Counted from the first letter of the stretch, positions 13,651-59,319 are shown. The stretch is 64,000 bases of DNA from a virus (IMGVR_UViG_3300044979_000007:6899-70898), one strand, 5' to 3'. Notes: generated from the letters alone by a model not told the origin. Made by a program: numbers and translations.

Positions 13651-13782
13651 TATATTTGTCTTGCGTATTACTTTCGACAAATGAAATTTTTAACACAAAA
13701 TCCCGTAAATAGGTGCATTCCCTTCCTTTGGTTGAGAGTGATACGCCGCCTGTTTGCGGGACTTTGTTTTTTATGGAATTAA
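13651..13782 (+). promoter_or_regulatory. promoter plus structured leader/uORF of the HNH-AP2 gene
   Basis: TATATTTG 13651-13658; stems 13663-13678/13731-13746 and 13695-13713/13749-13767; uORF 13681..13782. Confidence 0.6.
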
Positions 13783-15267: not shown

Positions 15268-15288
15268 AATAATCATTAACTTAGCCTT

Positions 15289-15507
15289 ATGGCTAAAATA
15301 AAACGTTCCGTTAAGAAGTTGCCAGAATATCCAGCCGACCACAAGCTGGGTATGGTTGTTCCAGAAGGGGGCAGCATGTGTGGCCGTTGCTCTTTTTGGG
15401 ACGGTAAGGATTGCGAAAACAAATATTATCGAGAATGGAATGGATCAGGAGAAATACCAGTTGCGCCAGAAAGATATTGCTGCGACTTTTTTCAAACTTC
15501 AAAATAA
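15289..15507 (+). CDS. small Cys-rich protein
   Basis: CxxC..C...CC pattern (GGSMCGRC...RYCCDFF). Confidence 0.65.
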   Translation: MAKIKRSVKKLPEYPADHKLGMVVPEGGSMCGRCSFWDGKDCENKYYREWNGSGEIPVAPERYCCDFFQTSK

Positions 15508-27364: not shown

Positions 27365-28135
27365 ATGGCTATTCAAAAACAGGGGTGGGTTACGGTTGAA
27401 GTATGCGTAAATGAATACTTGGATCGTAGCGAACAGAGCAACCACAAATATTTCAAGTTGTGGAACATAGCCTTTGCCGGGATGCAAAAAATGGGTATTA
27501 ACTTCTTTTACCAAATACAAACCTTTAAACTTCCAATTAACTCAAACTTCACCGTCAATAGGCCAGATAATTATCTAAAATGGTGCAAGGTGGGGGTGGG
27601 TAACGCCATAGGAGAAATTATCCCGTTGGACTACAATAATAAGCTAAATCTTTTTGCTGATCTACAAACAAACAGATTATCTCAAACTCAAGACAATTCG
27701 CTGTTTAATTTTTACTTCGGGAATTCTGGGATTTTCTATAACTACTGGAACGGCGACACGTTTGAAACATTATATGGACTTCCAAGCGGAGGGCCTTTTG
27801 TGGGTAGCTTTAAGATGGATGAAACAAACAATCTAATCGTACTGAATGATTTTTTTCAATACCCATATTGTTTTTTAGAGTGCTTAACCTCGCCAAAAGA
27901 AGGATCTGAATACAGAGTGCCAGTTGATTTTGAGGAAGCAATGATTGCCTTTATGGGGTGGCAAGATAACTATTACAAGCCGTCAAGCAGTCACATGCAA
28001 CGCGGAGATAAAGAAAGTTTGAAACAAAACTTTTACAATGAACTTAGGCTAGCTAAGGCGAATTACAAACCCTTCCAATTAGAGGAGGCGTATGAATGGA
28101 ATTTGAAAAACATGAGATTAACAGTAAAATCTTGA
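27365..28135 (+). CDS. tail ring/tubular protein
   Basis: VNRPDNYLKWCKVG and VPVDFEEAMIAF motifs; tail module position. Confidence 0.65.
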   Translation: MAIQKQGWVTVEVCVNEYLDRSEQSNHKYFKLWNIAFAGMQKMGINFFYQIQTFKLPINSNFTVNRPDNYLKWCKVGVGNAIGEIIPLDYNNKLNLFADLQTNRLSQTQDNSLFNFYFGNSGIFYNYWNGDTFETLYGLPSGGPFVGSFKMDETNNLIVLNDFFQYPYCFLECLTSPKEGSEYRVPVDFEEAMIAFMGWQDNYYKPSSSHMQRGDKESLKQNFYNELRLAKANYKPFQLEEAYEWNLKNMRLTVKS

Positions 28136-28140
28136 TTATC

Positions 28141-28716
28141 ATGAGTATATACAATAGAGAGATTTTAGATTACAATGATGGGGAAATGTGGAATGGAATT
28201 CCAGGATGGGAAGACCTTTACGAAGTTAGTTCCGCTGGAAGGGTTCGTTCCCTAGATAGAGTTGTAAAAAACTACAGAAGTGGGACTTGTGTATTTAAGG
28301 GGAAAATAATGAAATATAATTTAGCCAGAGGATATCATACCGTTTTGCTTTATAGATCCGCTACAGATAAAAAAAGACATGGCGTTCATCTTTTAATGGG
28401 GAAAGCATTTTTGGGTAATCCTGAAAACAAAAAAACTATAAACCATAAAAATACCATCAAAACAGATAATTATTTGTCTAATCTTGAATGGGCTACTTAT
28501 TCAGAACAGCAAATTCATGCAGTTAAAAATAATCTCCGGGATAATTCATTGGGAGAATCAAGCAATTTCTCTAAATTAATAAAAGAGGAAGTGCTTGAGA
28601 TAAGGGAATTGTTTGATTCTAAATCTTTAACAATAAAAGAGTTAGCGGTTAAATTTAAGACGGCTAAGTCCAATATTCAGTATATCGTCAACAGAGAAAC
28701 TTGGAAACATATCTAA
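28141..28716 (+). CDS. NUMOD4-HNH homing endonuclease with C-terminal HTH
   Basis: EMWNGIPGWEDLYEVSSAGRVRS, VHLL...INHKN..KTDN.L.NLEW. Confidence 0.92.
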   Translation: MSIYNREILDYNDGEMWNGIPGWEDLYEVSSAGRVRSLDRVVKNYRSGTCVFKGKIMKYNLARGYHTVLLYRSATDKKRHGVHLLMGKAFLGNPENKKTINHKNTIKTDNYLSNLEWATYSEQQIHAVKNNLRDNSLGESSNFSKLIKEEVLEIRELFDSKSLTIKELAVKFKTAKSNIQYIVNRETWKHI

Positions 28717-32686: not shown

Positions 32687-33241
32687 ATGAATATAAACGT
32701 TTACAATTCAGATGAAAAATGGCTTCCAATTAAGGGGTTTGGAGGAAACTATGAAGTTAGTAATCTAGGAAGGATAAGGTCGTATTGCTGGAATAGGGAG
32801 GTTATTAGAAAGGTACACATTGGCACTACCGGATACTTTGAAATTACCTTACATGACAAGATGAAGCAAAAACGATGCAAAGTTCACCGATTGGTGGCAT
32901 TGGCTTTTATTCCGAAGGTCAAAGGGAAAACAATGGTTAATCATAAAAACGGTTTAAAAACAGATAATCGTGTGGAAAATCTAGAGTGGTGCACGATGAG
33001 CGAAAATAGCATGCATGCATACGCCACCTGCTTAAGCAAGCCAGCATGGACCGGAAAATTTGGTCAAAAAAATAAAACAGCAAAATTAGTGGGACAATTT
33101 ACAAAAGACGGAAAAAAAATAATGGAATTTTACGGGGCGAGAGAGGCACAAAGAAAAACCGGAGTCGCATTTAGAAACATTTCTCAGGTATGCGTTGGGG
33201 AAAGGCCGTCTGCCGGGGGATATATTTGGAAATTTATATAA
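32687..33241 (+). CDS. NUMOD4-HNH-NUMOD1 homing endonuclease
   Basis: EKWLPIKG..YEVSNLGRIRS, VHRLVA.AF, VNHKNG.KTDNRV.NLEW, AGGYIWKF. Confidence 0.93.
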   Translation: MNINVYNSDEKWLPIKGFGGNYEVSNLGRIRSYCWNREVIRKVHIGTTGYFEITLHDKMKQKRCKVHRLVALAFIPKVKGKTMVNHKNGLKTDNRVENLEWCTMSENSMHAYATCLSKPAWTGKFGQKNKTAKLVGQFTKDGKKIMEFYGAREAQRKTGVAFRNISQVCVGERPSAGGYIWKFI

Positions 33242-44073: not shown

Positions 44074-44574
44074 ATGCCTCTAGTGCCTTCGTTTTCGGTG
44101 ACCCCTTTAGGAAATGGATCATCTTTCGTAATAACTGACACATCTACAGGGTCAGACGGGGCTATTACCGACAGACAAATTTTGATTTATACAGCTTCGA
44201 ATGCTTTACTGGTTCCGGCCATAGATTTCCAGCTTTCTGCCGGAAATTCCATAACAATATCGCCGTTAACTACAGATATCGCCGTAGCTATTGTATTGAA
44301 TTGGAATAATAGTTCTGGCGCTGCTATTTATACGTACAACCTTATTTTCGCTTTTGTTCAATTCGGGCTTCTTTTCCTGCAATCCCTTACGCAAACTCAA
44401 ATCTCTAATCCAAATATAGTCAACGATCAAAACTGGATCAGTCAAAAACTAGGGATTTTCTTGGAGATTCAAAGCGCATTGAATGCAATAAACGTAGGTC
44501 AAAGTGTGGCCGCAGCCCAATCCTGTATTTTGAGATATAACCAGACTATTGCGAACCAAAACACTATATTCTAA
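44074..44574 (+). CDS. tail structural protein
   Basis: FVITDTSTGSD N-terminal beta domain; tail module position. Confidence 0.6.
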   Translation: MPLVPSFSVTPLGNGSSFVITDTSTGSDGAITDRQILIYTASNALLVPAIDFQLSAGNSITISPLTTDIAVAIVLNWNNSSGAAIYTYNLIFAFVQFGLLFLQSLTQTQISNPNIVNDQNWISQKLGIFLEIQSALNAINVGQSVAAAQSCILRYNQTIANQNTIF

Positions 44575-45446
44575 TGGCATCGCAATTCACTATCAGCCAG
44601 ATAATCGAATACCAGGAGGTCAGTCAATATCTCGCAGCAAATGACAAGTCTTCATTAATGCAATTGCAAAGCGGATCATACATTGGCATACTGCCACAAC
44701 TTTTGTATATGGAGGGGGTTCTTTTACAGAACCTAAATAGTCTCAATCCTGGCAGCCCAACACTAAGGGGGGCGGCCGAATATGTCTTATCGCTTTGCGG
44801 TAAATACTTATCACAAGCTATCCAGACGATCAACAATCTAGCAGGCTCAAAGCCAGTTATTACAGGGCCCAGCAATGAAGCTACCACGGTTGGTGGATCG
44901 GCCACTTTCACTGTCAGCGTTACGTCTTCAACTCCAGTTGTAATTCAATGGCTTTTGAATGGTGTACCGACAGGAACATTTGGAAGTACACTTATTGTTT
45001 CAAATGCTCAATTATCTCAAAACGGAAATCTTTATTCAGTGCAAGCAACTAATCTCGCTGGTGTAGTTACCAGCAATCAAGCAACTTTGACAGTAACAGC
45101 CGGACTGACCGGCCAATTTTATCAAGGCAGCACAGATTATTCGGCAGCATTGGAAGGCGGTACGGACAACGTGTCCTACTTGGGAACCTTCCCTATAACG
45201 ACAGGCCAACCGTTTACGGTTACATTCCCCGATCTTGTATCAACCGAATACCTAGTAGTAAAATATCCGGCGACTGAGCCAACGAAAACAAGTTATCTGA
45301 ACCCGCCGCCAAGTGGACCAGACACGGGGCCGGTACCAAATTTGGCATTGAATACGACAACTATTGGAGCTTATAAATATATATTCAGTAGGACAGGAGT
45401 ACCATTTGGTGTTAACGCAGTAAACGGTAAAATTCAATTCAGCTAG
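44574..45446 (+). CDS. tail protein with Ig-like domain
   Basis: P.ITGP......GGSATFTV......IQWLLNG...TL.VSNA....G..Y.V.ATN..G.VTS..ATLTV I-set pattern. Confidence 0.75.
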   Translation: MASQFTISQIIEYQEVSQYLAANDKSSLMQLQSGSYIGILPQLLYMEGVLLQNLNSLNPGSPTLRGAAEYVLSLCGKYLSQAIQTINNLAGSKPVITGPSNEATTVGGSATFTVSVTSSTPVVIQWLLNGVPTGTFGSTLIVSNAQLSQNGNLYSVQATNLAGVVTSNQATLTVTAGLTGQFYQGSTDYSAALEGGTDNVSYLGTFPITTGQPFTVTFPDLVSTEYLVVKYPATEPTKTSYLNPPPSGPDTGPVPNLALNTTTIGAYKYIFSRTGVPFGVNAVNGKIQFS

Positions 45447-45460
45447 AAAAAACAAACGAT

Positions 45461-48400
45461 ATGAACAAAGGTCAGCGGGTGGCCCTACCAAATAGATATT
45501 GGTCAGCCATCCTGTTAATCCTAATATTATTCTCTTTAAGGGGGTACGGTCAGACGTATAACCCGTCTATTCATGTCGTTGTTAACGATGCGATTTCCCC
45601 GGCACAGGCAACGCCAACCGATAGTCGTAGTATGTTCTATGACGCCACCAATTTCGTTTATAGGCCGTACCAATCAACCAGCGAGGTTTTAAGCTACCTG
45701 AATCTTTCAAAGTATAGAACCGGAAATTTTCTTATTGTCATTGACAGCGGCGGAACGTTGCAGAGCAACGGGACGTTTCTGAATGGTACGAATACCATTT
45801 GGATGTTCCGGGATAGTACAACCAATTCTGCGTTAATAAAATTGAATATATTTAATACTGGTGCATGTTCGGGTTGTTTGTTGGCTTCGAATAACTTGTC
45901 TGATTTGGCAAATGCCGGTACCGCCCGATCCAACCTAGGATTAGGATCAATGGCTACGCAAACCACTACTGCTATAGGGTCTGATGTGGTAGGTACATGG
46001 CCGGGAGCGTTGACAGTAGCTAAATTCAACGGACAATTACCATCTTATTACCTTAACTATGCCAATCTTACCAACCCCCCTCCCGGATTAAGTCTTACCA
46101 CCACCGGAACTTCCGGGGCGGCTACTTACAATTCAACAACAGGCGTTTTAAACATTCCAAACTATACCGGAGGCGGCGGAAGTTGCTTAAACTGTAATGC
46201 GGATACAATCGGAAACATACCATTAAACTTTGTTAGCTTCTGTAACAACTGCGTATTAACGTTAGATAGTACGGCTGGGTATGCGTATTGGGCACCGTCT
46301 ACTGGCGGGACAGCTTCTTTGCCTCCAAATGGAGGAAGTGGTTTTAGAATTTATTCTCCCCAAATTCCAGCCATTCGCTCACTAGTTTGCGCATCTGGAT
46401 GTACGATTGATTCAACGAGCAATACAGGATCGTTAACGTTTACTGTTACCACCAGCGGGGTCGGGACGGTTACCAATTTTTCGGCGGTCAATATCACCGG
46501 GTTTGCAACTCAGGGCGTAACGAATGCAACTACCACCCCACAGCTTACTTACACTCTTATTAACGCACCTGCCTACAATGTTTGGGGAAACAATACATCC
46601 TCTCCGGGGGCACCTGCCTATTTTGCCCCCAACTTGACGATATTAAACCAATGGGCCAGCGGGTCAATAGCTCTTTTGGGAGCTACGCAAACCTTTACAG
46701 GGTCAAACACATTTAATGGGGGGATATTCTTAGGATCATCAGTTGGGTTCTCGGCGGATAACACGTATAATATAGGGTCTACCTTAGATGGAGCAGCCAA
46801 TATATATTCCAGAAATTTACTGTCAACGTCTAATTTACTATTGGGCGCAGGGGCCTCAAGTTCCATAGCTTTTGATATCAATGGCGTCACTAACGCGCAA
46901 TTACTCAGTACCGGCCAATTGAATCTTACGAAGTATACTACACCTACTTCATTTACGGGTACGGCTACCTCAGTCTTAGAAGTTGACGCTTCCGGAAACA
47001 TCATACAAGGGCCTATAACGTATAACCTGTATGCGGTGGAAGGTACATCTCCGATAGGAACACATGGAGATTCGGTACAATTGGGAGGATCGTTGGGGAC
47101 ATTGTTTCAGCCGGATACTATTTTCACGGCAGGTCAACCTTTTTATATTACCGGACTACCCAGCAAAGCAACGGCCCTTACTACTGACAGCGTTTTGATT
47201 GAAACAATAGCAGGACAGTTGTATAAATTGCCTGTTCCTTCTGGCGGGGGCGGTGGATTGACCTCCTTCACTTCTCCGAACAGCACTATAACCATAGGTG
47301 GAACCCTGACAGCGCCAACCGTAGATATCAACTTGGCACATGCGAATACATGGAGTGCCCTTCAAACACTTACCGGTGGGTTGGCCATGACCAGCAACAT
47401 CACCTTCACCGCTACCAACACTTATAGCATAGGAACCCTATCAGATGAAGCATCACAAGTCTATACCCAAAATATATCAGCCAATGGAGGATTAGCACTA
47501 AGCGCAGGGTCTACCAATAATATTACATTAGCGTTTAATGGAACACCAGAAGCAGTTTTAAGTCATACTGGTCAGCTTCAATTGAATAGTTATGGGGTCG
47601 GAACGTTTACGGGAACGACGGCCTATTATCTGGCAGTAACATCAGCAGGTCAACTTATCGAAAGTAGCGGAAGCGGCGGCGGTTCGCCTGGTGGTAGTAA
47701 TACAGACGTTCAGTTTAACAACTCAGGAGCTTTTGGCGGGGCTGCTGGAATGACTTGGAACGGCTCTGTCTTCACAGCCACGGCCATTACTTCAACGGGA
47801 GATGCAACGATTAACGGAGTGGATGCCGGTTTGGGTAAAGGCGCTCTTGCCCACAATACCGTATTCGGTGTAGGAGTATTTAACGCTACCCCCACCGGAG
47901 ATTATAATACGTTCTTTGGGTATGACGCCGGATATGGTAACACTTCTGGAACTGGAAATATTGGAATAGGACCGCTCGTATTAAGCAGCAATGCAACTGG
48001 AACATACAATGTTGGTATAGGGTATCAGGCTGCCAGGAATGTAACCGGAAGTTTCATTGTGGCCATAGGAGATCAGGCATTGAGTGCATATGTCAGCGGC
48101 AACGACGCAACCGCTGTAGGCGCATTGTCACAAGTTAACGCTACCGGATATGGAAATACTTCACTCGGTAAATGGTCGTTGTCTCTTTTGACAACTGGAA
48201 CATGGAATACAGGAGTAGGACTTGGGGCTGGATCGGGGGATAGCACTGGTGTTGACAACTGGTGGGGAGCATATTTGGCAGGCGATCTCGCCTCAACTGG
48301 ATCATGGAATACCGTCACCGGTGCGTATGCTGTCCAACAACAGGCACATCCATTCTATAATACTGATTACGGTTTTGAAGCAGGTGGGCAAAATTCATCA

Positions 48401-50593
48401 ATCAGCGACACTGCCGCGATATTGATAGGTTGGCAACCATTCGGGGCCAGCGGACAAACGATGAACCGAAAGGCTACGATAGCTATTGGTAATAATATCG
48501 GGTATGCCCAGAACGCTCATTGGTATGAAGATATTTTACTTTCAGATAGCCTTAATGCCCCATCATCAGATACATTTGTTTATAATGTAATAGCCATAGG
48601 TCATAATATCACCCTCCCCTCCGCTGCTTCGAATCTAGCTATTTTCGGGACACAGACACAGCAAATTTTACTTGGGAATGGCGGTGTGACGACTACGGTC
48701 ATGAATGCCTTTCCGAATATAGCCGGAGGAATTGTTTATAATACGACCACCGGTGGTTACTACTTTAATAATGGGTCAGGCTGGATAGCTTTTTCTTCTG
48801 GCGGAGGTGGGGGAGTAACAACAGTAGGGGCATACAACGGCGGAACGGCAAATTCAAATGGCCTTTATATCAGCGGGACCAACATATATGCCCAACCAGC
48901 ATCTACGACCAACCCTGGGATGGTCAATGCCTCCGGTGCGCAGACGCTTGGTATTACTATGACCCTGAACACCGATGCGACCATCCACGGCGTAAAAATT
49001 GGTACTGGGGTTGGGAGTGGCTCCGGAAATACTGCCACAGGAAACGGAGCGATGAGCACTGCAAGCACCGGAACTGGCAATACCGCAGATGGATTTGATG
49101 TTCTTTATAATTACAACGGGAGCGGCATTGGAGCCAATACAGGAGTAGGATATGAGGCGGCGATAAATGTTACTTCTGGTCAATACAACACCTTCCTAGG
49201 GTATCAGGCTGGGGACATAGTTTATACCGGCATCGGCAACACGGTGGTAGGAGCATCAGCCCAGTTCGGCAATAATACCAATCAAGCCGTCAGTTATGTA
49301 ACAGCAGTCGGTTACAACGCTCTTAATGCCAATTATGCAAATTATAATACCGCATTCGGATATGATGTTTTGGAACTGAACACAACTGGCACTTATAACG
49401 TAGGGTTCGCTCCAGGCGCTTTGGCCAACAACACAACCGGAAGCTACAATTATGGTGGTGGCGTCAATGCGGGCAATTCTCTTGTTTCCGGTAGTTATGA
49501 ATTTTTAATGGGTCCGTGGGTGAATTCGGCCACAACGACCGAAAGCGACACGGGCAGAATCCTGAATGGGATACTGATGACAGGATTGTTTTCTCCAACT
49601 GCTTTATACAGCACACCGGTGACTGGTTTTGAAGTAGGCATTGCGATGTATCCTACATCAACGCTGACGGTCGGCATTTCGCCGTACATGGGTACTTTAG
49701 GAACTCAATTGGTCGCCGCCGCCAAGACATCAAACGATGCGGTTACTTCAGGAAGTGGAACCGTCCCCGACATGGCGGCGGATGTGTTTAATGCCCCAAC
49801 ATTCAGTGCCACTAATACAGGCATCACCTATACAAATGGGTCTACTGTCTACATTTCAGGGGCACCATCGAACGGCACTAATGTAACCATCACAAACCCA
49901 TTTGCACTTAAAGTAGCGTCAGGAGCCAGCGATTTTGCAGGTCAGGTATTTGTGGCTAATCCGTCTTCCGGGAGTATGACGTGGAATCCCAATAGCGGTA
50001 CGGGGTTATCTCAAGGAGCGTTTAGCATTAAAAATATAACCTACAATGATGCCACTACTGCCGCCAGCGGGACAGTGACAAACGCTTTTGCGAATAGTGT
50101 AGCTACTCCTACTTTTTCAGCTACCAATACCGGCGTTGTGTACACTAACGCCTTCACTTTCTATATAAATGGTGCCCCGAGTGTAGGCACCAATATAATT
50201 ACAACAAACGGGTATGCTCTAGGCGTAAATGGCCCGGCTATTTTCCAAACTCAATTATCTACCAAAAGCGAAGCCATTTATAACTGGCAAACAGTAACAA
50301 CTGGCACCACATCTACAGTTGGTAACAATCAAACAAACTGGCTCCTTAATTTAAGCACTCTAGCTACCACGTTTACGGTTACCCTCCCTTCCGCACCTGT
50401 TGATGGGCAGTTAGTAAAATTATTCTTTGGCGGGACAATCTCAGGCGGGTCTACCGTAGTAACAGCCCTAACCGTTTCAGCCAACAGTGGTCAAACAATT
50501 ACTCAGTCAGCAGTCCCCACAACAGCTTTAAGCGGTAATTGCTATATCTATCAATACAATCTGGCATTAGCAAGCTGGTATCGTCAACAGTGA
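45461..50593 (+). CDS. tail-fibre/adhesin-like protein with N-terminal Sec signal peptide
   Basis: WSAILLILILFSLRGYG-Q; LLASNNLSDL..AR.NLGLG fibre motif; NTxxG beta-roll repeats; internal duplications. Confidence 0.75.
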   Translation: MNKGQRVALPNRYWSAILLILILFSLRGYGQTYNPSIHVVVNDAISPAQATPTDSRSMFYDATNFVYRPYQSTSEVLSYLNLSKYRTGNFLIVIDSGGTLQSNGTFLNGTNTIWMFRDSTTNSALIKLNIFNTGACSGCLLASNNLSDLANAGTARSNLGLGSMATQTTTAIGSDVVGTWPGALTVAKFNGQLPSYYLNYANLTNPPPGLSLTTTGTSGAATYNSTTGVLNIPNYTGGGGSCLNCNADTIGNIPLNFVSFCNNCVLTLDSTAGYAYWAPSTGGTASLPPNGGSGFRIYSPQIPAIRSLVCASGCTIDSTSNTGSLTFTVTTSGVGTVTNFSAVNITGFATQGVTNATTTPQLTYTLINAPAYNVWGNNTSSPGAPAYFAPNLTILNQWASGSIALLGATQTFTGSNTFNGGIFLGSSVGFSADNTYNIGSTLDGAANIYSRNLLSTSNLLLGAGASSSIAFDINGVTNAQLLSTGQLNLTKYTTPTSFTGTATSVLEVDASGNIIQGPITYNLYAVEGTSPIGTHGDSVQLGGSLGTLFQPDTIFTAGQPFYITGLPSKATALTTDSVLIETIAGQLYKLPVPSGGGGGLTSFTSPNSTITIGGTLTAPTVDINLAHANTWSALQTLTGGLAMTSNITFTATNTYSIGTLSDEASQVYTQNISANGGLALSAGSTNNITLAFNGTPEAVLSHTGQLQLNSYGVGTFTGTTAYYLAVTSAGQLIESSGSGGGSPGGSNTDVQFNNSGAFGGAAGMTWNGSVFTATAITSTGDATINGVDAGLGKGALAHNTVFGVGVFNATPTGDYNTFFGYDAGYGNTSGTGNIGIGPLVLSSNATGTYNVGIGYQAARNVTGSFIVAIGDQALSAYVSGNDATAVGALSQVNATGYGNTSLGKWSLSLLTTGTWNTGVGLGAGSGDSTGVDNWWGAYLAGDLASTGSWNTVTGAYAVQQQAHPFYNTDYGFEAGGQNSSISDTAAILIGWQPFGASGQTMNRKATIAIGNNIGYAQNAHWYEDILLSDSLNAPSSDTFVYNVIAIGHNITLPSAASNLAIFGTQTQQILLGNGGVTTTVMNAFPNIAGGIVYNTTTGGYYFNNGSGWIAFSSGGGGGVTTVGAYNGGTANSNGLYISGTNIYAQPASTTNPGMVNASGAQTLGITMTLNTDATIHGVKIGTGVGSGSGNTATGNGAMSTASTGTGNTADGFDVLYNYNGSGIGANTGVGYEAAINVTSGQYNTFLGYQAGDIVYTGIGNTVVGASAQFGNNTNQAVSYVTAVGYNALNANYANYNTAFGYDVLELNTTGTYNVGFAPGALANNTTGSYNYGGGVNAGNSLVSGSYEFLMGPWVNSATTTESDTGRILNGILMTGLFSPTALYSTPVTGFEVGIAMYPTSTLTVGISPYMGTLGTQLVAAAKTSNDAVTSGSGTVPDMAADVFNAPTFSATNTGITYTNGSTVYISGAPSNGTNVTITNPFALKVASGASDFAGQVFVANPSSGSMTWNPNSGTGLSQGAFSIKNITYNDATTAASGTVTNAFANSVATPTFSATNTGVVYTNAFTFYINGAPSVGTNIITTNGYALGVNGPAIFQTQLSTKSEAIYNWQTVTTGTTSTVGNNQTNWLLNLSTLATTFTVTLPSAPVDGQLVKLFFGGTISGGSTVVTALTVSANSGQTITQSAVPTTALSGNCYIYQYNLALASWYRQQ

Positions 50594-53500
50594 AGAAACT
50601 TTTAGTCATATTATTTTTTATCCTCCCCTTCCTTGTACATGGGCAGCAGCTAAACAGGGATCAGTGGGGTAATCAATTATATATTGTTCCTGTATGGGAA
50701 GGGTGGTGTGAATACTTGAATACCTACATCCGGTCGTCAGATTCGACCTGGTGGGCGGGTGGTAATGATATTGCTCTGCGTGGTTTGGGGTCGGCTACCG
50801 CTCCACAAGCGGTTCCTACAGCCGTGCCGGTTGCCGGTATAAAATTCATTCAGATTAGCAACGGATTGCATGACAATTTTGCGATTTCTTCTATAGCGGA
50901 CACCTCTTTTGGGTATGAGATAGGGGCCAACAATTACGGACAGCGAGGAGACGGGACAACCAACACACAAACCACGGCCTATAAGCTCCGTTACGATAGT
51001 TCCGGCAATCTGTTTGATAGTCTGAAGATCATTGCCGGAGGTTGGCAGGCGGCAAATAACGCCCCCTTTTATGCCGCCGTCAAAAACAACGGAAGCGTTT
51101 GGATGTGGGGTTATTTGGCCAGTGGTGGGGCTGGTAATCAATCGGCAGGGGGCACCTTAAAAAAGCCTATATCCGTTACTTTGGCCGGGGGTAAAATAGC
51201 AGAGTTTATTCAATGTAACGACGACTGCGCGGTTCTATGTTCCGACAGCACAGTACAGACATGGGGGAATGACAATAGCTATGCCTCAAATCTTGGTAGA
51301 ACTTATTCAGGAACCGGAAACCGATCCCCCACTGATATAGGTCTATCTCACATCGTTTCCATTGCCGTAGGATACGGGTTTAATTATGCGATTGATGTTA
51401 GTGGTCATGTACACTTCTGGGGGCAATTCGAGGCTTATGGTGGGTATGGCGCAACAAGTGGAACGGCAACCACTCCTATCGATATTACAACGGCCCTTGC
51501 ATTGTCTGCAACCCCTAAGAAGATTGTCTGCAACCACAACGCAACGATGGGATTACTCTCGAATGGCGAAGTGGTTAGCTGGGGTGGTATCCCAACGGGC
51601 TCAACCGCTCAGGGAGTTGATTTTAACTGGCCAGCTTATACCACACCTGCCAGCGGAACCAACCCTTATAATGGAACAGTTCCGAGCCCTTGGAATTGGT
51701 ACCTCGAATATTTCAATAACAGCAGTGCAGACTTTACCGATTACACCGTTCAAGTCAAACAGGTAGCTCCGGGTAAGAGCAATTTCGTTCAGATATTCGG
51801 CGGTCAATTATACGATTTTGATTTTGCTTGCGAAGATTCCACTGGGCAATTCTACCAAGCAGGCCGAAATAAAGGAGCGGTCATTGCCAACGGAACCTAT
51901 GCGGCTGACACCCTAAGTTCTACGATTGAAGCCGATTTTCCAGTTAGCTGGGATCAAATATATTTAGTGCTAACCAATCCATTCAACGTCACAGTGGTTC
52001 AGGAAGTAACAAGTCCATATTGCGTCCTCAATCCTTCGACAGCGCCTTGTCCAAATTACACGATTCCAACGCGGACACACCCACATGCGTCAGTTACTTC
52101 ATTCACAACAGCACCTGGCAGAGTTGTTCTTAATGGAAGCGCCTCTACTGCTTATTACTTCAACAATAGGCTATGGACGCAATTGACAGGCCCGGCAACA
52201 ACGCAAATGGCCATTCAAACCTCACCAACCGATACGGTAATACTCATAACACCCGGTACATACACATATAAATATAAAATAACCGATGACGTTTGGCAAT
52301 CTGATTCAGCCGTCTCAACCATAATCGTATCTGCCGTAGCACAAACAGGGTTTTATTTCGCAGATACGGCTACCGGGACAGGATGCACTTTAGCATGGCC
52401 GTGCCCACCTTCTCTATTTAATTCAGTATACGCCACAGAAAGTGGTGGTGATACCAATTACCTAAAGCGGGGTGATGTCTTCCCGATTGAAATGGTTGCC
52501 AATTCATCCGGATCATCTGGTAATCCCATTGTAACAAGACCCTACGGAACAGGACCGGAACCCATCATAGGAGGGATGACTACCCAAACAGGGTGGACCA
52601 ATATCGGGAGTAACGTTTGGCAGGTAGCTTACACGAGCGGAGTAATTCCTAATTTACTCGCCGCAAATGACACGCTATGGAATGTAGCCAGAACACCCAA
52701 TTTCTTATCCGGATATCACATCGCTACCTCAACAACGAGTAATACAATTACCGACGCGGCGAATGCGGGAACGGTCTCTACCGGGGATAGTATTGTATAT
52801 CGACCAAATCCGTATACCTTCAATCATAGAAAAGTCAGCGGGGTAGCCGGGTCAGTCATCACCGTTAGTTCAAACTTCGGAACCATAGCAGGCGGGTTAG
52901 GGTGGTTCAAGTACAACACCTTACCAGATACGGCCTACGAATACAGAATGAACAGCGGAAATTTACAGGTGTATAGCGTCAACACGCCAACGAATATCAC
53001 CACGCCAACCGTTGACACCTGTTTACTCAGTGAAGGAACCTATCAGGAATGGGATAGTCTGCATTTCTCAGGCGGCAACAACGCTGGTATTATCTTAGCC
53101 TTCCAAGCCAATTCAGGAAATGTTTTCAAATGGGATACGGTAGATTATTGTTTCGATGCTTTTCAAATGCGGACACAAGGCGGCTGGTCACTCATCAACT
53201 GCCACATCCTTCACTGTGTTGATGGAGGCGTACAGAAACAAGGAAACAGCAACTACAACAACACCTATCTAAGCGATACTCTAATTGATATAGGTATGCG
53301 TCCGGGAATGGGTGGGGAAAATGGAGATCAAAACTATTCAGCTCTCGTGGCCGGTGACAGCGGATCGATTGTCAAGTACTGTGAGGTTTACCAAGCCGGA
53401 TACATTGGGATAGCCAATTATGGAAGCAGGTATAAATCAGATAGCAATTGGGTGAACTTCTTTTGTCAGGTGGCGGAAGATGGAGGCGGATTATACACGT

Positions 53501-54234
53501 ATCAAGCATCCGGAAGTGTGCCTTCTTACCGTCCTGAAAATGTCGGAGACGTTATATCCAATGGAGGAAGCTATTTAGCGCATAACGGCATGAACCCAAC
53601 GCTAACGCCGGCAGCTTACGGCGTTTACAATGACAATTACAGCAGCAATATTTATAGTAACGGCGTGTCTGTGTATAACGTAAGTGCATCATCGTTCTTT
53701 TGTCACGGGCCTAACGACACTTTCATAAACTGCACAGCTTATGCATCAGGACTATCAGATCTTTACTTGTATGAGATATCCACCGGTCCTGTCATAACAG
53801 GTACTTACGTGAAGCATAATGTTTTTGGATCAGGGACATGGAGTGTAGCTGCCGTTCGGTTTGCCACTGTTAACAACGACATCCCAACGATGGCCACATC
53901 CGATAGTAACCAGGTGGCTGGATTCAATGGAGCGCCCAATCCATATTGGACATTTGCAACGTCCGGTGGTGATCCTGGAACTTTTAGAACGTTGGCAGGA
54001 TGGACAGGATTAACAGGATATGACGCGCATACTACATATCAGACAGGAGTTTTAGGATTTAATTACAACGGGACATCATCTAATTCAACACAAAACCTGA
54101 ATAATCTATACAAAACTTTGAATGGCGCATTTAAATGGGGAAGTATTACCTTATCACCGTACACCTCTCAGGTATTGATAAATGTGGGGGTTGGTATTCA
54201 AATACAAATTGGTAGTAAACTAAATGTTTTATAA
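50590..54234 (+). CDS. signal-peptide protein with RCC1-like repeats, PKD-like domain and right-handed beta-helix
   Basis: GTGA overlap start; MKKLLVILFFILPFLVHG-Q; G.NNYGQRGDG, V..WG repeats; WTQLTGP..PGTYTY; YLKRGD, EDGGGLYT. Confidence 0.75.
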   Translation: MKKLLVILFFILPFLVHGQQLNRDQWGNQLYIVPVWEGWCEYLNTYIRSSDSTWWAGGNDIALRGLGSATAPQAVPTAVPVAGIKFIQISNGLHDNFAISSIADTSFGYEIGANNYGQRGDGTTNTQTTAYKLRYDSSGNLFDSLKIIAGGWQAANNAPFYAAVKNNGSVWMWGYLASGGAGNQSAGGTLKKPISVTLAGGKIAEFIQCNDDCAVLCSDSTVQTWGNDNSYASNLGRTYSGTGNRSPTDIGLSHIVSIAVGYGFNYAIDVSGHVHFWGQFEAYGGYGATSGTATTPIDITTALALSATPKKIVCNHNATMGLLSNGEVVSWGGIPTGSTAQGVDFNWPAYTTPASGTNPYNGTVPSPWNWYLEYFNNSSADFTDYTVQVKQVAPGKSNFVQIFGGQLYDFDFACEDSTGQFYQAGRNKGAVIANGTYAADTLSSTIEADFPVSWDQIYLVLTNPFNVTVVQEVTSPYCVLNPSTAPCPNYTIPTRTHPHASVTSFTTAPGRVVLNGSASTAYYFNNRLWTQLTGPATTQMAIQTSPTDTVILITPGTYTYKYKITDDVWQSDSAVSTIIVSAVAQTGFYFADTATGTGCTLAWPCPPSLFNSVYATESGGDTNYLKRGDVFPIEMVANSSGSSGNPIVTRPYGTGPEPIIGGMTTQTGWTNIGSNVWQVAYTSGVIPNLLAANDTLWNVARTPNFLSGYHIATSTTSNTITDAANAGTVSTGDSIVYRPNPYTFNHRKVSGVAGSVITVSSNFGTIAGGLGWFKYNTLPDTAYEYRMNSGNLQVYSVNTPTNITTPTVDTCLLSEGTYQEWDSLHFSGGNNAGIILAFQANSGNVFKWDTVDYCFDAFQMRTQGGWSLINCHILHCVDGGVQKQGNSNYNNTYLSDTLIDIGMRPGMGGENGDQNYSALVAGDSGSIVKYCEVYQAGYIGIANYGSRYKSDSNWVNFFCQVAEDGGGLYTYQASGSVPSYRPENVGDVISNGGSYLAHNGMNPTLTPAAYGVYNDNYSSNIYSNGVSVYNVSASSFFCHGPNDTFINCTAYASGLSDLYLYEISTGPVITGTYVKHNVFGSGTWSVAAVRFATVNNDIPTMATSDSNQVAGFNGAPNPYWTFATSGGDPGTFRTLAGWTGLTGYDAHTTYQTGVLGFNYNGTSSNSTQNLNNLYKTLNGAFKWGSITLSPYTSQVLINVGVGIQIQIGSKLNVL

Positions 54235-55157
54235 TGAGAAAATTATTCAGTCTTTTGGCATTTCTTCTGCCGTTGTCGATCTTCGCTCAGACAACGCCAG
54301 GCATCACTGAGGTTACCCTTGGTGGGTATCAATTTTTGGAGCATATCCCACAAGCCTATAAAGCAGGACAGTTGGTTAATGTGTTGATTCAGGCACCTGG
54401 TAGTGGCGAAGTGGGTGGACCGATAGCTAAAGACACCATTAACGGACCATTCGCCTCGTGGGATGGACATCCGGGCGTAAAGGATACAACAGTCATGGAC
54501 CCAAATCTGGTAGTACTGGCATGGAACCCCGGAACGTCTTATGTGGCCAATAGTCAGGTGGCCGGGGTTATCGCAGCGGTCAAATCCACGTTCAATGTTA
54601 ACAAAATTGCCGTGTCAGGACTTTCTGAAGGTTGTGGCGATTTTACCAATTGGGCGTATAGTTCCTATGCTAATTTTTCACAGATTGCAGCCTTTTTCTT
54701 ATTCAGTCCACAGCCAACACAAGCGGTAGCCTATGCCGGTCCTGGAACGCAGTGCCAATGGTTCTTGAAAGATTCCGCGTATTTTTATGCAGCTTGCGCC
54801 ACACAAGACCCTGATGGATTTTATGGACCGGCACTATTGGAGTTTGACAGCATACAGGCAGAACATCCCTACCGGACCCCTGAATTTACCGCTATGTCCT
54901 GTTCGTGCCATTCATCCGCCGCATGGGGACAATTCTTCTCACCTTATTGGATCGATCCTGTTACTGGAAGGAATATTTATAACCAATTCATGTATGAATA
55001 CCCTGTTGCTTCAGTTGGGCCGCCAGTTACTCCGCCTGTGACCAAATGCCCTGTGCAGCGCACCGCTATTGGATTTACCCTGACCTATGTAAACGGAGTT
55101 TTAACCACATTGGTAACCTATTCTGATTCGACTAGCGCACCTATCGTAGTGCCATAA
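54234..55157 (+). CDS. signal-peptide alpha/beta-hydrolase (esterase-like)
   Basis: MRKLFSLLAFLLPLSIFA-Q; PGSGE oxyanion region, GLSEG nucleophile elbow, candidate Asp (TQDP) and His (CHSSAAW). Confidence 0.72.
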   Translation: MRKLFSLLAFLLPLSIFAQTTPGITEVTLGGYQFLEHIPQAYKAGQLVNVLIQAPGSGEVGGPIAKDTINGPFASWDGHPGVKDTTVMDPNLVVLAWNPGTSYVANSQVAGVIAAVKSTFNVNKIAVSGLSEGCGDFTNWAYSSYANFSQIAAFFLFSPQPTQAVAYAGPGTQCQWFLKDSAYFYAACATQDPDGFYGPALLEFDSIQAEHPYRTPEFTAMSCSCHSSAAWGQFFSPYWIDPVTGRNIYNQFMYEYPVASVGPPVTPPVTKCPVQRTAIGFTLTYVNGVLTTLVTYSDSTSAPIVVP

Positions 55158-56186: not shown

Positions 56187-56651
56187 ATGGCATCTACAAC
56201 GACAACTCCCACACCTCCAACGCCGCCGACAACCGGAATAGCGGCATGGATAGCGGCAAATAAGGTCATTCTTTTTGGAATTTTGTCCGCTGGTATTTTA
56301 GCCGTTCAGCAATTGGCAAGTCAATATCCAAAGGACTATAAAGTTTTGGGCCTCGCTGCTTTTATCGCCGTCCTATCGTTTCTTGCCAACAATCTACGCG
56401 GTCAGTGGGCGTCTATCTTAGGATCGCTATTGCCTTCCCTTGGAATTGTGTTGACGAATATCGAAGCTGTTCCGCCTGTTCCCATTAGTTGGTGGCAGTT
56501 CGCCGGGGGCGCCGCATTGGCCATAGGAGGGGTATTGGCACCTCCCGCAAAGAGCCTATCTTACGAAACATCTCCGACAATTGTAGCAGCAAAAGCACAA
56601 GCTGCCACTACGGATGCCGCAAAAAGTACTTCACCCCCCGTTTCAAAATAA
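56187..56651 (+). CDS. multi-pass membrane protein, holin candidate
   Basis: Four hydrophobic segments; upstream of the endolysin. Confidence 0.6.
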   Translation: MASTTTTPTPPTPPTTGIAAWIAANKVILFGILSAGILAVQQLASQYPKDYKVLGLAAFIAVLSFLANNLRGQWASILGSLLPSLGIVLTNIEAVPPVPISWWQFAGGAALAIGGVLAPPAKSLSYETSPTIVAAKAQAATTDAAKSTSPPVSK

Positions 56652-56657
56652 CTACTT

Positions 56658-57170
56658 ATGAAATATATATTGATAATCTCTTTACTCTTTATCGGGATCG
56701 TTGGGAATGCTCAGTCTCCTTTTAAATCTCAGCCTGTTTTGCAATTACGCGGGGCATCGGCAGTACGTGCGATGGCGGTTACAACTGTTCCGGCAGCTAT
56801 TTCCCCACTACCAACGGTTACAGAAGCGGATAGCATTGTAAATGCTTGGCGGTTTACGGCCAATATTTCGCCAGGCGGATACACATTCAATGGAACCTAT
56901 CAGGTAATGGCCGGAGCCGAATTTGGCTGGCAGCATCAATCATACTCCTATGCCACCCAAACCTACACAGTACTCTATTCCATCAATGCCGCATGGTTTC
57001 CTATTAATTCTGCGAATGGCTTTACCTCATTGGCGGGTATTTCTTCCGTGGCGGCCTTATTCGGCTTCGATAACAATTTGATCCAGCTAGGGCCGATGTA
57101 TAATCCGAACGCACCTGCAAATCAAAAATGGGGAGTTTGCGCAGTAATTGGTATCAACCTAAACAATTGA
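56658..57170 (+). CDS. exported beta-strand protein (small outer-membrane barrel candidate)
   Basis: MKYILIISLLFIGIVGNA-Q; alternating aromatic strands; C-terminal VIGINL. Confidence 0.6.
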   Translation: MKYILIISLLFIGIVGNAQSPFKSQPVLQLRGASAVRAMAVTTVPAAISPLPTVTEADSIVNAWRFTANISPGGYTFNGTYQVMAGAEFGWQHQSYSYATQTYTVLYSINAAWFPINSANGFTSLAGISSVAALFGFDNNLIQLGPMYNPNAPANQKWGVCAVIGINLNN

Positions 57171-57174
57171 CGAG

Positions 57175-57282
57175 ATGAAAAGACGGCCACCGATGGATGT
57201 CCTTGCGGCTATGCTTTGGTGGTTCTATTTGGCTTTTCTAATTTTTGTTATCTTTGGTATCTGTTCCCATAAACTTAAATAA
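57175..57282 (+). CDS. single-TM micropeptide (35 aa)
   Basis: Manual: MKRRPPMDVLAAMLWWFYLAFLIFVIFGICSHKLK. Confidence 0.5.
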   Translation: MKRRPPMDVLAAMLWWFYLAFLIFVIFGICSHKLK

Positions 57283-57283
57283 T

Positions 57284-57409
57284 ATGTACATCAAAACATG
57301 GAAGATCATCGTAGGATGTGTACTGGCTTTGATTTTAGCTGGTATTGCTTTTACATCCATCCGTAATTATGCTGCCACTCATTACGATCACCAATATACG
57401 CAACGATGA
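57284..57409 (+). CDS. single-TM micropeptide (41 aa)
   Basis: Manual: MYIKTWKIIVGCVLALILAGIAFTSIRNYAATHYDHQYTQR. Confidence 0.5.
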   Translation: MYIKTWKIIVGCVLALILAGIAFTSIRNYAATHYDHQYTQR

Positions 57410-57501
57410 CTAAATCAGATATAGCCAAACTAATGTACATAGCTGTGCTAATCTCTTGCGCTATTGTTATTTGGTTGGATAAACCCGAACTGATATGGTA
57501 G
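57406..57501 (+). CDS. single-TM micropeptide (31 aa)
   Basis: Manual: MTKSDIAKLMYIAVLISCAIVIWLDKPELIW; ATGA overlap. Confidence 0.5.
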   Translation: MTKSDIAKLMYIAVLISCAIVIWLDKPELIW

Positions 57502-58133
57502 TAAAGTCGGCGATAGCAGGTAAGTATTTTGACGTTGACAGTGAGTTATCTGGTGCTGAGGCTGCTGCATTCGTTGCGGCTGGATTTGCTGGGTGTATTC
57601 GCTATCTCCCTTTAAATTCATTAGATGTACCCGGATGTCTCACCTCGTTGGAATTGCAGATTCTCCTTTCCGCTGGTCTCTCCGTCGCCGCTGTTCAGCA
57701 CGTTGATTCTTTCCCGTGGACGCCAACGGCAGCATTAGGAACTTCACACGGCAACTATGCGGCTGCATATGCTAAGGCTATTGGTTACTCGTCCGGCGCG
57801 GCCATCTATTGTGACATGGAATCTCCGGCGACGACAGCCACAGCAGAAGACTGTATTGCTTATTTGAATGCATGGGTGAGTGAAGTGCAGGCTGCTGGTT
57901 ATGTCCCCTCTTTATACATCGGATGGGGCGTTCCGATGACACCGAAGCAGATTTATGATTTGCCGGTTATAGAAAGCTATTGGGCCGCATACAACTATAC
58001 AGATGGAGTTGCCACGAGAGGGGTACAAATTCAGCAGCATACCGCTAAAGTGCTTAACGGAATAAACTACGATCCGAACACGGTTGCCCCTGATTTGCTA
58101 GGCGATTTGCCGATATTTGTATTTTCGTCATAA
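57495..58133 (+). CDS. endolysin, DUF1906/Rv2525c-like GH25-related glycoside hydrolase
   Basis: FDVD...GCIRYL...LTS.E...L.AGL....Q, IYCDME, GYVPSLY. Confidence 0.85.
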   Translation: MVVKSAIAGKYFDVDSELSGAEAAAFVAAGFAGCIRYLPLNSLDVPGCLTSLELQILLSAGLSVAAVQHVDSFPWTPTAALGTSHGNYAAAYAKAIGYSSGAAIYCDMESPATTATAEDCIAYLNAWVSEVQAAGYVPSLYIGWGVPMTPKQIYDLPVIESYWAAYNYTDGVATRGVQIQQHTAKVLNGINYDPNTVAPDLLGDLPIFVFSS

Positions 58134-58157: not shown

Positions 58158-58202
58158 GCCGATCTTTTGGAGTGGGTTCAAAGGGTCGGCATTTTTATTT
58201 TC
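58158..58202 (+). terminator. intrinsic terminator after the endolysin
   Basis: GCCGATCTTTTG...CAAAGGGTCGGC followed by ATTTTTATTTT. Confidence 0.7.
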
Positions 58203-58437: not shown

Positions 58438-59319
58438 ATGGACAAAGCAACATTAAAAAGAGCGTTTTCGGCGGTTGATAAGTCCGACGCCATAGCCGCC
58501 GGGTATTCCCTGTCCGCCGCCAGAGCCGCCGGGTATTCCCTGTCCGCCGCCAGAGCCGCCGGGTATTCCCTGTCCGCCGCCAGAGCCGCCGGGTATTCCC
58601 TGTCCGCCGCCATAGCCGCCGGGTATTCCCTGTCCGCCGCCAGAGCCGCCGGGTATTCCCTGTCCGCCGCCATAGCCGCCGGGTATTCCCTGTCCGCCGC
58701 CATAGCCGCCGGGTATTCCCTGTCCGCCGCCAGAGCCGCCGGGTATTCCCTGTCCGCCGCCATAGCCGCCGGGTATTCCCTGTCCGCCGCCATAGCCGCC
58801 GGGTATTCCCTGTCCGCCGCCATAGCCGCCGGGTATTCCCTGCCCGCCGCCAGAGCCGCCGGGTATTCCCTGTCCGACGCCAGAGCCGCCGGGTATTCCC
58901 TGCCCGCCGCCAGAGCCGCCGGGTATTCCGATAAAGACATTCAGGAATGGGAAGACATCCCTGTCTTAGATAAGCCATACACGCACTTGCTGGCCGATAT
59001 TAAAGAAAAGAAACGCATTCACAGGCAATCAACATGGGGGCCAGAAGATAAGCCAACCGACAAAAAACACATCTGCGATACGCCAATGTGTACAGCGGGG
59101 CATTTAGTCAACATGGTGGGTAAAATTGGATGGGGATTGAAGAATAAATATGGATGGAGAGATGCCGCCGCGCTGATCCATACAAAAGCCCATCCGAATT
59201 TCCCGCAACAAGATTTCGGAGCAATTGGAGATGAAAGAGCTATGGCCTATATTGAAGCGGCCGCAGAATTTGAAGAAACAGGAGTAAACCCTTTTGCAGA
59301 TATTTTTAAAGAAAAGTAG
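58438..59319 (+). CDS. decapeptide-repeat protein with C-terminal Cys/His domain
   Basis: 15 x A[R/I]AAGYSL[S/P][A/D], then TWG..HICDTPMCTAGH...AAALIH. Confidence 0.8.
   Translation: MDKATLKRAFSAVDKSDAIAAGYSLSAARAAGYSLSAARAAGYSLSAARAAGYSLSAAIAAGYSLSAARAAGYSLSAAIAAGYSLSAAIAAGYSLSAARAAGYSLSAAIAAGYSLSAAIAAGYSLSAAIAAGYSLPAARAAGYSLSDARAAGYSLPAARAAGYSDKDIQEWEDIPVLDKPYTHLLADIKEKKRIHRQSTWGPEDKPTDKKHICDTPMCTAGHLVNMVGKIGWGLKNKYGWRDAAALIHTKAHPNFPQQDFGAIGDERAMAYIEAAAEFEETGVNPFADIFKEK
58481..58929 (+). repeat. 30-bp coding tandem repeat, about 15 copies
   Basis: Unit GCCA[T/G]AGCCGCCGGGTATTCCCTG[T/C]CCG[C/A]C, head-to-tail with no spacers. Confidence 0.97.

Follow-up and report, generated by a model that had tools for sequence, protein, structure and literature searches.

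The locus considered here raises a simple question: why should three consecutive genes in the tail-fibre position of a phage all encode proteins that begin as if bound for export? The genes lie in a 64,000-nt stretch of viral DNA (IMGVR_UViG_3300044979_000007:6899-70898), cut from a 70,898-base viral record (bases 6899-70898) whose completeness is rated at 100%. I call this whole stretch the window. Judged by the relatives of its terminase and by its gene content, it is a free podovirus-like phage of a Bacteroidota host and no prophage. The three genes are closely coupled within one late unit (Table 1); the first has the look of a tail fibre or tailspike. I argue below that all three products are likely to be exported through Sec, cut before a glutamine that becomes pyroglutamate, and O-glycosylated. 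I propose, much more tentatively, that the fibre is added to the virion only after that journey.

Consider the N-termini. Gene 1 begins MNKGQRVALPNRYWSAILLILILFSLRGYG, followed by QTYNP; gene 2 begins (V/M)KKLLVILFFILPFLVHG, followed by QQLNR; and gene 3 begins MRKLFSLLAFLLPLSIFA, followed by QTTPG, its leader of aa 1-18 ending in I-F-A before the Gln. In each of the three, basic residues come first, then a hydrophobic core without charges, with small residues at -3 and -1 and Gln at +1, just as in the preliminary description of this DNA, which had reported three open reading frames (ORFs) with Sec-type signals before Gln. By the heuristic used here, the n-region, the core, the -1/-3 residues and Gln+1 of all three proteins fit substrates of Sec and signal peptidase I that obey the Q-rule, described for Bacteroidota signal-peptide substrates in PMC5837995 and PMC10653852. 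Leader plus Gln was flagged in 6 of the 101 predicted ORFs of the genome (genes 1-3, a 165-aa early protein and two lysis-cluster proteins), and among the 14 ORFs of at least 300 aa it picks out genes 1-3 exactly. Leaders are absent from the portal, the capsid-like protein, a 1322-aa structural protein, a 1971-aa giant protein and the three proteins of 299, 166 and 290 aa encoded upstream of gene 1. The longest ORF for gene 2 would open at an upstream TTG, at 50539, which I judge the less likely start. The possibility raised earlier, that the true starts lie downstream of the hydrophobic segments, finds no conserved in-frame start near the cleavage site to work with, and a leaderless isoform made from an internal start is rejected on the same ground.

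Then there is the evidence from relatives, a survey of which had been suggested as a check. A word-indexed search with fibre residues 1-420 gathered 109 proteins, most of them on contigs of 10-77 kb. With duplicates removed and the proteins of related loci included, there are 92 distinct fibre N-domains, and in 88 of them a leader ends just before a Gln that opens the conserved Q-T-Y-N-P-S...D-x-R-S-x-F-Y-D. Position -1 is G, A, S or T in 86 of these 88, position -3 is small or aliphatic in 87, the leaders run from 18 to 33 residues, and Gln31 is invariant in the 20 sequences of alignment A3. The leader sequences vary freely and the boundary stays fixed, as one would expect if the signal is cleaved. 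Of the four exceptions, two (P0027 and P0050) keep an 'AQ' remnant and resemble truncated gene calls; the other two are genuinely leaderless. Among 25 phage-like relatives of gene 2, leader plus Gln is found in 15 and another leader in 2, with truncated leader remnants in 3 of the other 8, and the closest homolog of gene 3 (66% identity) has a different leader, ending VRG before Q. About half of the fibre leaders (41) also carry a long conserved basic n-region, with the consensus ...R-[KR]-x-[LF]-[PG]-[DGN]-[KN]-[YF]-R and a mean net charge of +3.4. It lies at 45461-45502 in the window, is absent from the leaders of genes 2 and 3, and is nothing that ordinary signal peptides need.

The fibre N-domain is encoded at ten viral loci. 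Six of these (L002-L007) repeat the gene order of the window: giant protein, homologs of the 299-, 166- and 290-aa proteins, leader-bearing fibre, one to three variable leader-plus-Gln proteins, and small membrane proteins. Two other phage types have the N-domain without a leader. One is L008/L009, a temperate siphophage-like genome of 36.5 kb that has an integrase and terminal repeats; the other is L011. Their ORFs begin M-SYNPS (L008/L009) or M-PYNPS (L011) at the predicted +1/+2, no upstream extension is possible, and there is no Gln. Both sit in tail modules: the L009 fibre follows tape-measure-like, virion structural and major-tail-like proteins, and the L011 gene adjoins proteins that match tail-fibre families. 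Since the leaderless ORFs start at the boundary and the Gln has gone, the predicted cleavage site evidently marks a real edge of the domain, and the Gln is part of the export signal, not of the fold.

Two further observations concern leaders at these loci. In L010 (102-3964) four leader-plus-Gln genes stand in a row, encoding 391, 361, 259 and 282 aa, the first being a short protein with the fibre N-domain. In L002 an 89-aa ORF (15119-15388) lies between the fibre and the gene 2 homolog, and its leader core and site (...FFILPFLVHG before Q) are the same as in gene 2 of the window; it looks like a recombination scar from a leader swap.

If these proteins reach the periplasm, they might bear the marks of it. 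In Bacteroidota, O-glycosylation occurs only after export. The sequon of the general system is given in PMC8550257 as D-(S/T)-(A/I/L/V/M/T), and its expected number was taken from 2000 composition shuffles per protein. Gene 1 has 10 sequons against 4.8 expected, gene 2 has 14 against 3.9, and gene 3 has 5 against 0.7, counts reached by 45, 0 and 0 of the 2000 shuffles, so that all three have sequons above chance in what would be periplasm-exposed proteins. The leaderless proteins of the window do not behave in this way: the giant protein has 2 (4.6 expected), the capsid-like protein none, the portal 3 (1.9), the 1322-aa protein 6 (4.6), and the 299-, 166- and 290-aa proteins 0 each. The same division runs through the families, leader-bearing proteins being enriched in the sequon by a factor of about 2.5-3. 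In 87 leader-bearing fibres there are 1189 sequons against 467 expected, with all 87 above expectation, and in 25 relatives of gene 2 there are 318 against 103, none of the 25 falling below twice expectation. Among leaderless fibres the counts are 1 (4.8 expected) in L009 and 0 (2.9) in L008; L011's leaderless N-domain gene has 1 (1.3), and the giant proteins of six loci have 0-5 against 3.2-6.6. The esterase family is divided within itself, its 13 leader-bearing members having 41 sequons against 14.4 expected and its 13 leaderless members 7 against 10.6; Asp stands in a sequon in 41 of 201 cases in the former and 7 of 165 in the latter (Fisher p 3e-6). Within homologous families the bias goes with the leader, so fibre composition does not account for it.

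Some membrane-anchored or lipobox-like proteins in the lysis regions of related loci are also very rich in sequons (L003 20243-20695, 6 against 0.7; L004 19583-20260, 9 against 0.8; L005 14713-15366, 8 against 0.8). They may be glycosylated spanin-like proteins.

Where would the exported proteins come to rest? The C-terminal sorting domain for type IX secretion (T9SS), whether type A (TIGR04183/PF18962) or type B, was sought in Pfam and NCBIfam with the whole of genes 1-3 and with their last 100-150 aa, and gave 0 matches at E<=1; a bacterial homolog serving as positive control, P0143, scores TIGR04183 at 4.5e-12. Genes 1-3 lack a lipobox too, +1 being Gln and not Cys, so that the absence of both signals, remarked upon at the outset, holds up. 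Export by twin-arginine translocation (Tat) is rejected: there is no RR in the three leaders of the window, and where RR occurs, in 12 of the 41 long fibre leaders, it stands several residues before a strongly hydrophobic core. With all three kinds of signal missing, the proteins would be expected to remain in the periplasm.

It was also suggested that the fibres might be oxidised there. The paired cysteines of gene 1 are indeed present (136/139, 242/245, 261/264 and 310/314), and one further Cys stands alone at 1694. That disulfides are why the proteins are exported gets no specific support from the distribution of Cys: the shared core of the N-domain has none, the CxxC pairs are confined to close relatives, and the Cys content of the esterases is 1.34% with a leader and 1.13% without.

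Taken together, the homologs with leader and Gln, the leaderless controls and the sequons that track the leader argue strongly for export, which I regard as well supported. To this extent (88 of 92 leaders, leaderless controls, sequons) the preliminary description's interpretation stands. It had offered two readings, either fibres that fold in the periplasm and join virions at or after lysis, or a secreted apparatus of adhesins and enzymes on the infected cell.

Gene 1 is fibre-like by its predicted architecture, with a conserved N-domain, a variable middle, swappable tips and a place in the tail module; that is to say, it is built as a receptor-binding fibre or tailspike would be. The LLASNNLSDL...ARSNLGLG motif reported earlier is present. 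For the beta-roll repeats reported with it, Pfam offers no match in gene 1 at E<=1. Residues 765-926 match virion-structural and tail-spike PHROGs (phrog_6002 and phrog_4636), and residues 421-1710 match annotated marine-phage tail fibres over 7-19% of their length (tblastn). Compared by sequence with solved structures, gene 1 matched only a designed repeat protein, a result treated as spurious. In the family, the middles are exchanged among a GDSL_2 (GDSL/SGNH) esterase, a SASA esterase, a BNR_2 sialidase-like domain and a pectate-lyase-like domain. There are several interchangeable tips: the last 130 residues of the fibre in the window are common to only 16 members, and the tip motif of the leaderless L009 fibre recurs in leader-bearing ones. 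Its place between the giant internal protein and the lysis genes is conserved in L002-L007. No other large fibre-like gene was seen in the genome, and the annotated fibre proteins of the elemo phage have no homolog here. Fibre aa 31-420, N-domain included, have no match in 50,697 GenBank phage records, the 9.7-kb locus has none among GenBank phages by megablast, the fibre-family alignment finds no relative in 185,579 species-representative bacterial genomes, and no cultured relative has a member of the family.

Genes 2 and 3 are a different matter, and the preliminary description's module of three fibre proteins is in this respect only partly right: both are enzyme- or binding-type proteins and lack the fibre N-domain. 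The RCC1-like, PKD-like and beta-helix parts attributed to gene 2 are there, with the reservations that the propeller's PF25390 match is below its gathering score (RCC1_2 being above its own), that the PKD-like domain lies below its cut-off, and that a right-handed beta-helix is indicated by transitive homology only. Gene 3 bears out the GxSxG hydrolase reported for it, having GLSEG and a modelled alpha/beta-hydrolase fold, followed by a Pro-rich linker and a small C-terminal beta domain. Its predicted triad is Ser131 (in GLSEG), Asp192 and His226; in 25 sequences S131, G133 and H226 are invariant and D192 is conserved in at least 90%. The model has a predicted local distance difference test score (pLDDT) of 83, and Foldseek matches it to 4q82, 1gkl, 7b6b and 6ne9 at E about 1e-7 to 1e-8, nearest to carboxylesterases, feruloyl esterases and CE1 acetyl-xylan esterases. 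By nucleophile elbow, triad and modelled fold, then, gene 3 is a CE1-like esterase, one that falls in no curated family, since Pfam, PHROG and NCBIfam give no match. The family has only 30 representatives among 1.84 billion proteins. Mature gene 2 has no match in GenBank phages, and single-protein scans of viral contigs found no close relatives of gene 2 or gene 3.

A candidate for holding the fibre on the virion is encoded directly upstream, in the leaderless 290-aa protein. Its homolog precedes the fibre directly in L003-L007 and is also found in the record of L002; the family is present in 4 of 5 records searched, the exception being L010, whose record is 52% complete. Through a C-terminal module of about 100 aa, the profile of this protein matches L008_2508_3185 (62 bits) and L011_9352_10005 (26 bits). 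The former is a 225-aa protein whose N-terminal half is the neck connector head-closure protein Hc1 (phrog_25), encoded amid adaptor, Neck1, terminator and major tail genes. The latter is the gene directly upstream of the N-domain gene. The C-module thus accompanies the fibre N-domain in all three architectures, fused to Hc1 in one and directly upstream in the other two. Because it does so, and because in one of them it is part of a virion neck protein, I infer that it is a candidate docking site for the fibre N-domain on the virion. A complex prediction for the C-module with the N-domain gave a score of 0.02 against a mark of 0.32, a result that counts neither for nor against binding. The profiles of the 299- and 166-aa proteins found no match in L008-L011 (best E 0.03).

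I propose that genes 1-3 would be made as Sec preproteins and exported to the periplasm of the Bacteroidota host, where signal peptidase I would cut before Gln, the host would cyclise the Gln to pyroglutamate under the Q-rule, and its general O-glycosylation system would decorate the proteins at the sequons. The endolysin is without a leader, so a holin must open the inner membrane for the phage. Once it did so, the endolysin would leave, and cytoplasm and periplasm would mix within a still-closed outer membrane. The mature fibre would then dock through its conserved N-domain on a surface module of the finished virion, for which the C-module of the 290-aa protein is the candidate. The products of genes 2 and 3 would be exported helpers, acting on envelope glycans or riding along with the fibre. 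The holes made by canonical holins are non-specific and very large; when spanins do not work, cells become round but keep their outer membrane; and T4 particles lacking fibres can take them up in vitro. With these behaviours in mind, fibres from the periplasm could come together with particles from the cytoplasm, at high concentration, while the outer membrane is still unbroken.

The steps of this proposal do not deserve equal trust. Cleavage, glycosylation, docking and the timing of docking are inferred throughout. That the three proteins are exported, cut before Gln, converted to pyroglutamate and O-glycosylated seems to me likely from their sequences and those of their relatives. That gene 1 is a receptor-binding fibre and follows the whole course from export to docking on the virion is the account I prefer, at somewhat under an even chance. 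The broadest statement is a little more doubtful again: that there is a lineage of phages whose capsid and tail are cytoplasmic and whose fibre passes through Sec, acquires pyroglutamate and host O-glycan, and docks only after the holin has merged the compartments.

A good deal weighs against the proposal. Tailed-phage virions assemble in the cytoplasm. The literature on signal peptides and O-glycosylation of phage fibres and receptor-binding proteins, subscription journals not covered, yielded no precedent for the attachment of a fibre after export and no description of an exported tail fibre. Genes 2 and 3, without the fibre N-domain, fit a secreted enzyme cassette as well as they fit helpers. 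The leader calls come from my own heuristic and comparative evidence, not from SignalP scores; the family counts are of related sequences and not of independent events; and the leaderless fibre controls are few, amounting to two independent phage types. The L011 match to the docking module is modest at 26 bits, with an E-value calculated over only 68 proteins. The model of the fibre N-domain is poor (mean pLDDT 45.5) and a search of BFVD folds gave no match at E<=0.001, so no structural link is made to a known virion-attachment domain. Finally, the assignment to a Bacteroidota host is itself derived from three things: the relatives of the terminase, a homolog of gene 2 in Puia sp., and the pattern of the Q-rule.

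An alternative view, on the improbable side and yet a serious contender, is that the products of genes 1-3 are exported and never enter the virion, serving instead to destroy receptors or modify glycans in the periplasm or envelope. By stripping or altering newly made surface polysaccharide they would leave the cell and its debris unable to trap progeny or to admit superinfecting phages, and would make release at lysis easier. This would make sense of three consecutive leader-bearing genes of which two encode plain enzymes or binding proteins, of the esterases, sialidase-like and pectate-lyase-like domains in the middles of the fibre family, and of the one to three further variable leader-plus-Gln genes that follow the fibre at related loci (four such genes in a row in L010). 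Without a T9SS domain or lipobox, the periplasm is the default location, and in passages of PMC10367356 the Q-rule proteins of P. gingivalis prophages are read as modifiers of the host surface. It is hard to see, however, why a task that calls only for enzymes should need a fibre of 1700 aa whose N-domain is conserved and whose tips can be swapped. In other phages that N-domain begins leaderless fibres within tail modules, and it occurs together with a module that is joined to a neck connector. Translational coupling ties the genes to tail genes, unlike a moron, and the genome would be left without a large fibre gene of any kind.

An exported fibre might instead be displayed on the surface of the infected cell or on outer-membrane vesicles, as an adhesin or a decoy, having crossed the outer membrane by a route that leaves no recognisable signal. 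The diversity of tips would suit such a role, and two bacterial proteins, P0083 and P0098, on contigs of 229 kb and 773 kb, have leaders and the NNLSDL...NLGLG motif. I think it unlikely: a T9SS domain is lacking where the positive control has one, there is no lipobox, the fibre N-domain was not found in the 185,579 species-representative bacterial genomes, and a lytic phage would have no clear benefit. Least probable is that the hydrophobic N-termini are uncleaved membrane tethers or assembly aids and that the fibre folds and joins the virion at the cytoplasmic face, for although this is the default biology of tailed phages and the long fibre leaders do have an unusually long conserved basic n-region, positive charges before a hydrophobic core imply that the bulk of the protein is translocated, the residues at -3/-1 and Gln+1 are distributed as at signal peptidase I sites, Gln disappears in just those cases in which the leader does, and a sequon bias suited to periplasmic modification tracks the leader in three families.

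The features discussed are collected in Table 1. The window encodes a primase-helicase, large terminase, portal, capsid-like protein and several HNH endonucleases, with a late region that closes with lysis genes; there are no tRNA genes in it. The terminase matches 87 phage records, all at less than 60% identity and at 26-29% among the 20 matches listed, which are podophages of Flavobacterium and Maribacter and one unclassified Caudoviricetes record; phages of Cellulophaga and Tenacibaculum are among the 87 as well. The giant protein is probably an ejected internal protein with an enzymatic domain. Terminator-like hairpins are overall at chance level (16 found, 17.5 expected), and nothing comparable to the one that closes the late unit lies between 43000 and 58133.

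Table 1. Features of the locus and its surroundings (positions counted from the first nucleotide of the window)
Feature	Coordinates	Strand	Remarks
Gene 1 (P0001), 1710 aa, fibre/tailspike-like	45461-50593	+	starts 14 nt past upstream stop
Gene 1 leader, aa 1-30	45461..45550	+	basic n-region, hydrophobic core, G-Y-G, then Gln31
Mature conserved N-domain of fibre, aa 31-~138, then CSGC and NNLSDL...NLGLG motif (to aa 163)	45551..45949	+	alignments A3, A4
Gene 2 (P0115), 1214 aa	50590-54234	+	GTG start overlaps gene 1 stop as GTGA
Gene 2 leader, aa 1-18	50590..50643	+	V-H-G, then Gln
Gene 2 RCC1-like propeller	about 51073-51615	+	PF25390 E 1e-22, below its gathering score; RCC1_2 above its own
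Gene 2 PKD-like domain	52120-52329	+	25 bits, cut-off 27
Gene 2 beta-helix region	about 52435-54180	+	aa 616-1197 align to P0149, Pfam Beta_helix inside aligned span
Gene 3 (P0003), 307 aa	54234-55157	+	ATG overlaps gene 2 stop as TAATG
Leaderless 290-aa Ig protein	44574..45446	+	Ig domain aa 93-174 (Pfam Ig_3/I-set)
Giant protein, 1971 aa	36047-41962		histidine-phosphatase domain aa 904-1051 (E 5e-18); zero Cys; sequons below chance
HNH endonuclease genes (four)	5214-5615, 13713-14525, 28096-28716, 32687-33241		two flank the 1322-aa structural gene
Lysis cluster	56187..58133	+	154-aa membrane protein, 170-aa leader-plus-Gln protein (56658-57170), 54-aa membrane protein, endolysin
Endolysin, without leader	57495-58133	+	Rv2525c-like glycoside-hydrolase domain; endolysin PHROGs
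Terminator-like hairpin	58158..58190	+	strongest on + strand; 14-bp stem and T-run; closes late unit holding genes 1-3

Three smaller genes may be recorded. Right after the late hairpin, at 58438-59319, is a gene for a 293-aa protein with a decapeptide repeat region (PF25296, E 1e-34). The 165-aa protein of the early region (1063-1560, - strand), which matches no family, has 6 Cys and a leader that ends AMG before Q. It contains 4 sequons where 0.7 are expected, a number attained in 9 of 2000 shuffles. Possibly it is exported early in infection, to exclude superinfecting phages for instance. Outside the window, at about 5-367 of G000:C1 (- strand), is a lipoprotein-like 120-aa protein that begins MKYLALFLLATVVNYS before C.

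What would follow? Textbook assembly of tailed phages is wholly cytoplasmic, and at least 88 distinct fibres that are routed through Sec and biased towards sequons would point to one of two outcomes. Either some phages finish their virions outside the cytoplasm, with receptor-binding proteins glycosylated by the host, or exported proteins shaped like fibres are turned by phages on the envelope of the infected cell. Either would change how tail-fibre genes of Bacteroidota phages are annotated, expressed and engineered, as recombinant fibres from the E. coli cytoplasm would be without cleavage, pyroglutamate and glycan, and it would bear on the prediction of host range from fibre sequences. Should assembly in two compartments be real, the virion would carry host-type glycosylation on its organ of host recognition. 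The leaderless homologs provide a ready comparison for experiments.

How does the locus compare with what is known? Among cultured relatives by terminase, two were compared: Flavobacterium phage elemoA_7-9A over its whole genome, and Maribacter phage Panino over the first 50,000 of its 77,160 bases. Neither has a structural protein with a leader, and a sequon bias is absent from both. One gene of Panino (L013, PP540027.1, 19341-21899), annotated as a DNA polymerase, begins MKFIKILILFVSLNCFS before QTYLHI, a leader-plus-Gln-like N-terminus. One would not expect this of a polymerase, and it suggests that either the name or the start is wrong. As to the literature, signal peptides are counted in two Bacteroides phages in passages of PMC5723332, and in PMC12633290 SignalP comes up in the methods only.

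Podophage fibres and tailspikes of the T7 gp17 and P22 gp9 types have a conserved N-terminal part for attachment to the virion and variable distal parts that are enzymatic or bind receptors. Gene 1 resembles them in following internal ejection-type proteins and preceding lysis genes, and in its conserved N-domain with variable middle and tip. It differs in its cleavable-type Sec leader, its Gln+1 and its sequon bias, and no sequence or fold link to them was obtained. Gene 2 has its nearest counterpart in P0143 of Puia sp., a T9SS cargo of the RCC1/PKD/beta-helix type with a leader and Gln, to which its RCC1- and PKD-like parts are about 30% identical over 39% of the length. P0143 has a T9SS type A sorting domain, however, and the phage protein does not. 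Sec-exported and signal-arrest-release (SAR) endolysins, covered in passages of a review (PMC6116005), are like spanins in being late phage proteins that use host Sec and wait in the envelope until the holin fires; unlike genes 1-3 as I interpret them, they are lysis proteins and not parts of the virion or of receptor binding, and the endolysin of the window has no leader. A further comparison is with the five Q-rule genes of unknown function in P. gingivalis prophages, described in passages of Matrishin et al. 2023 (PMC10367356). There too a predicted cut by signal peptidase I exposes Gln, an adaptation to Bacteroidota secretion. Those phages, as there described, are temperate and the genes include no fibre, whereas here the gene stands in the fibre position of a lytic-type podophage lineage, the leader is found family-wide, and a sequon bias goes with it.

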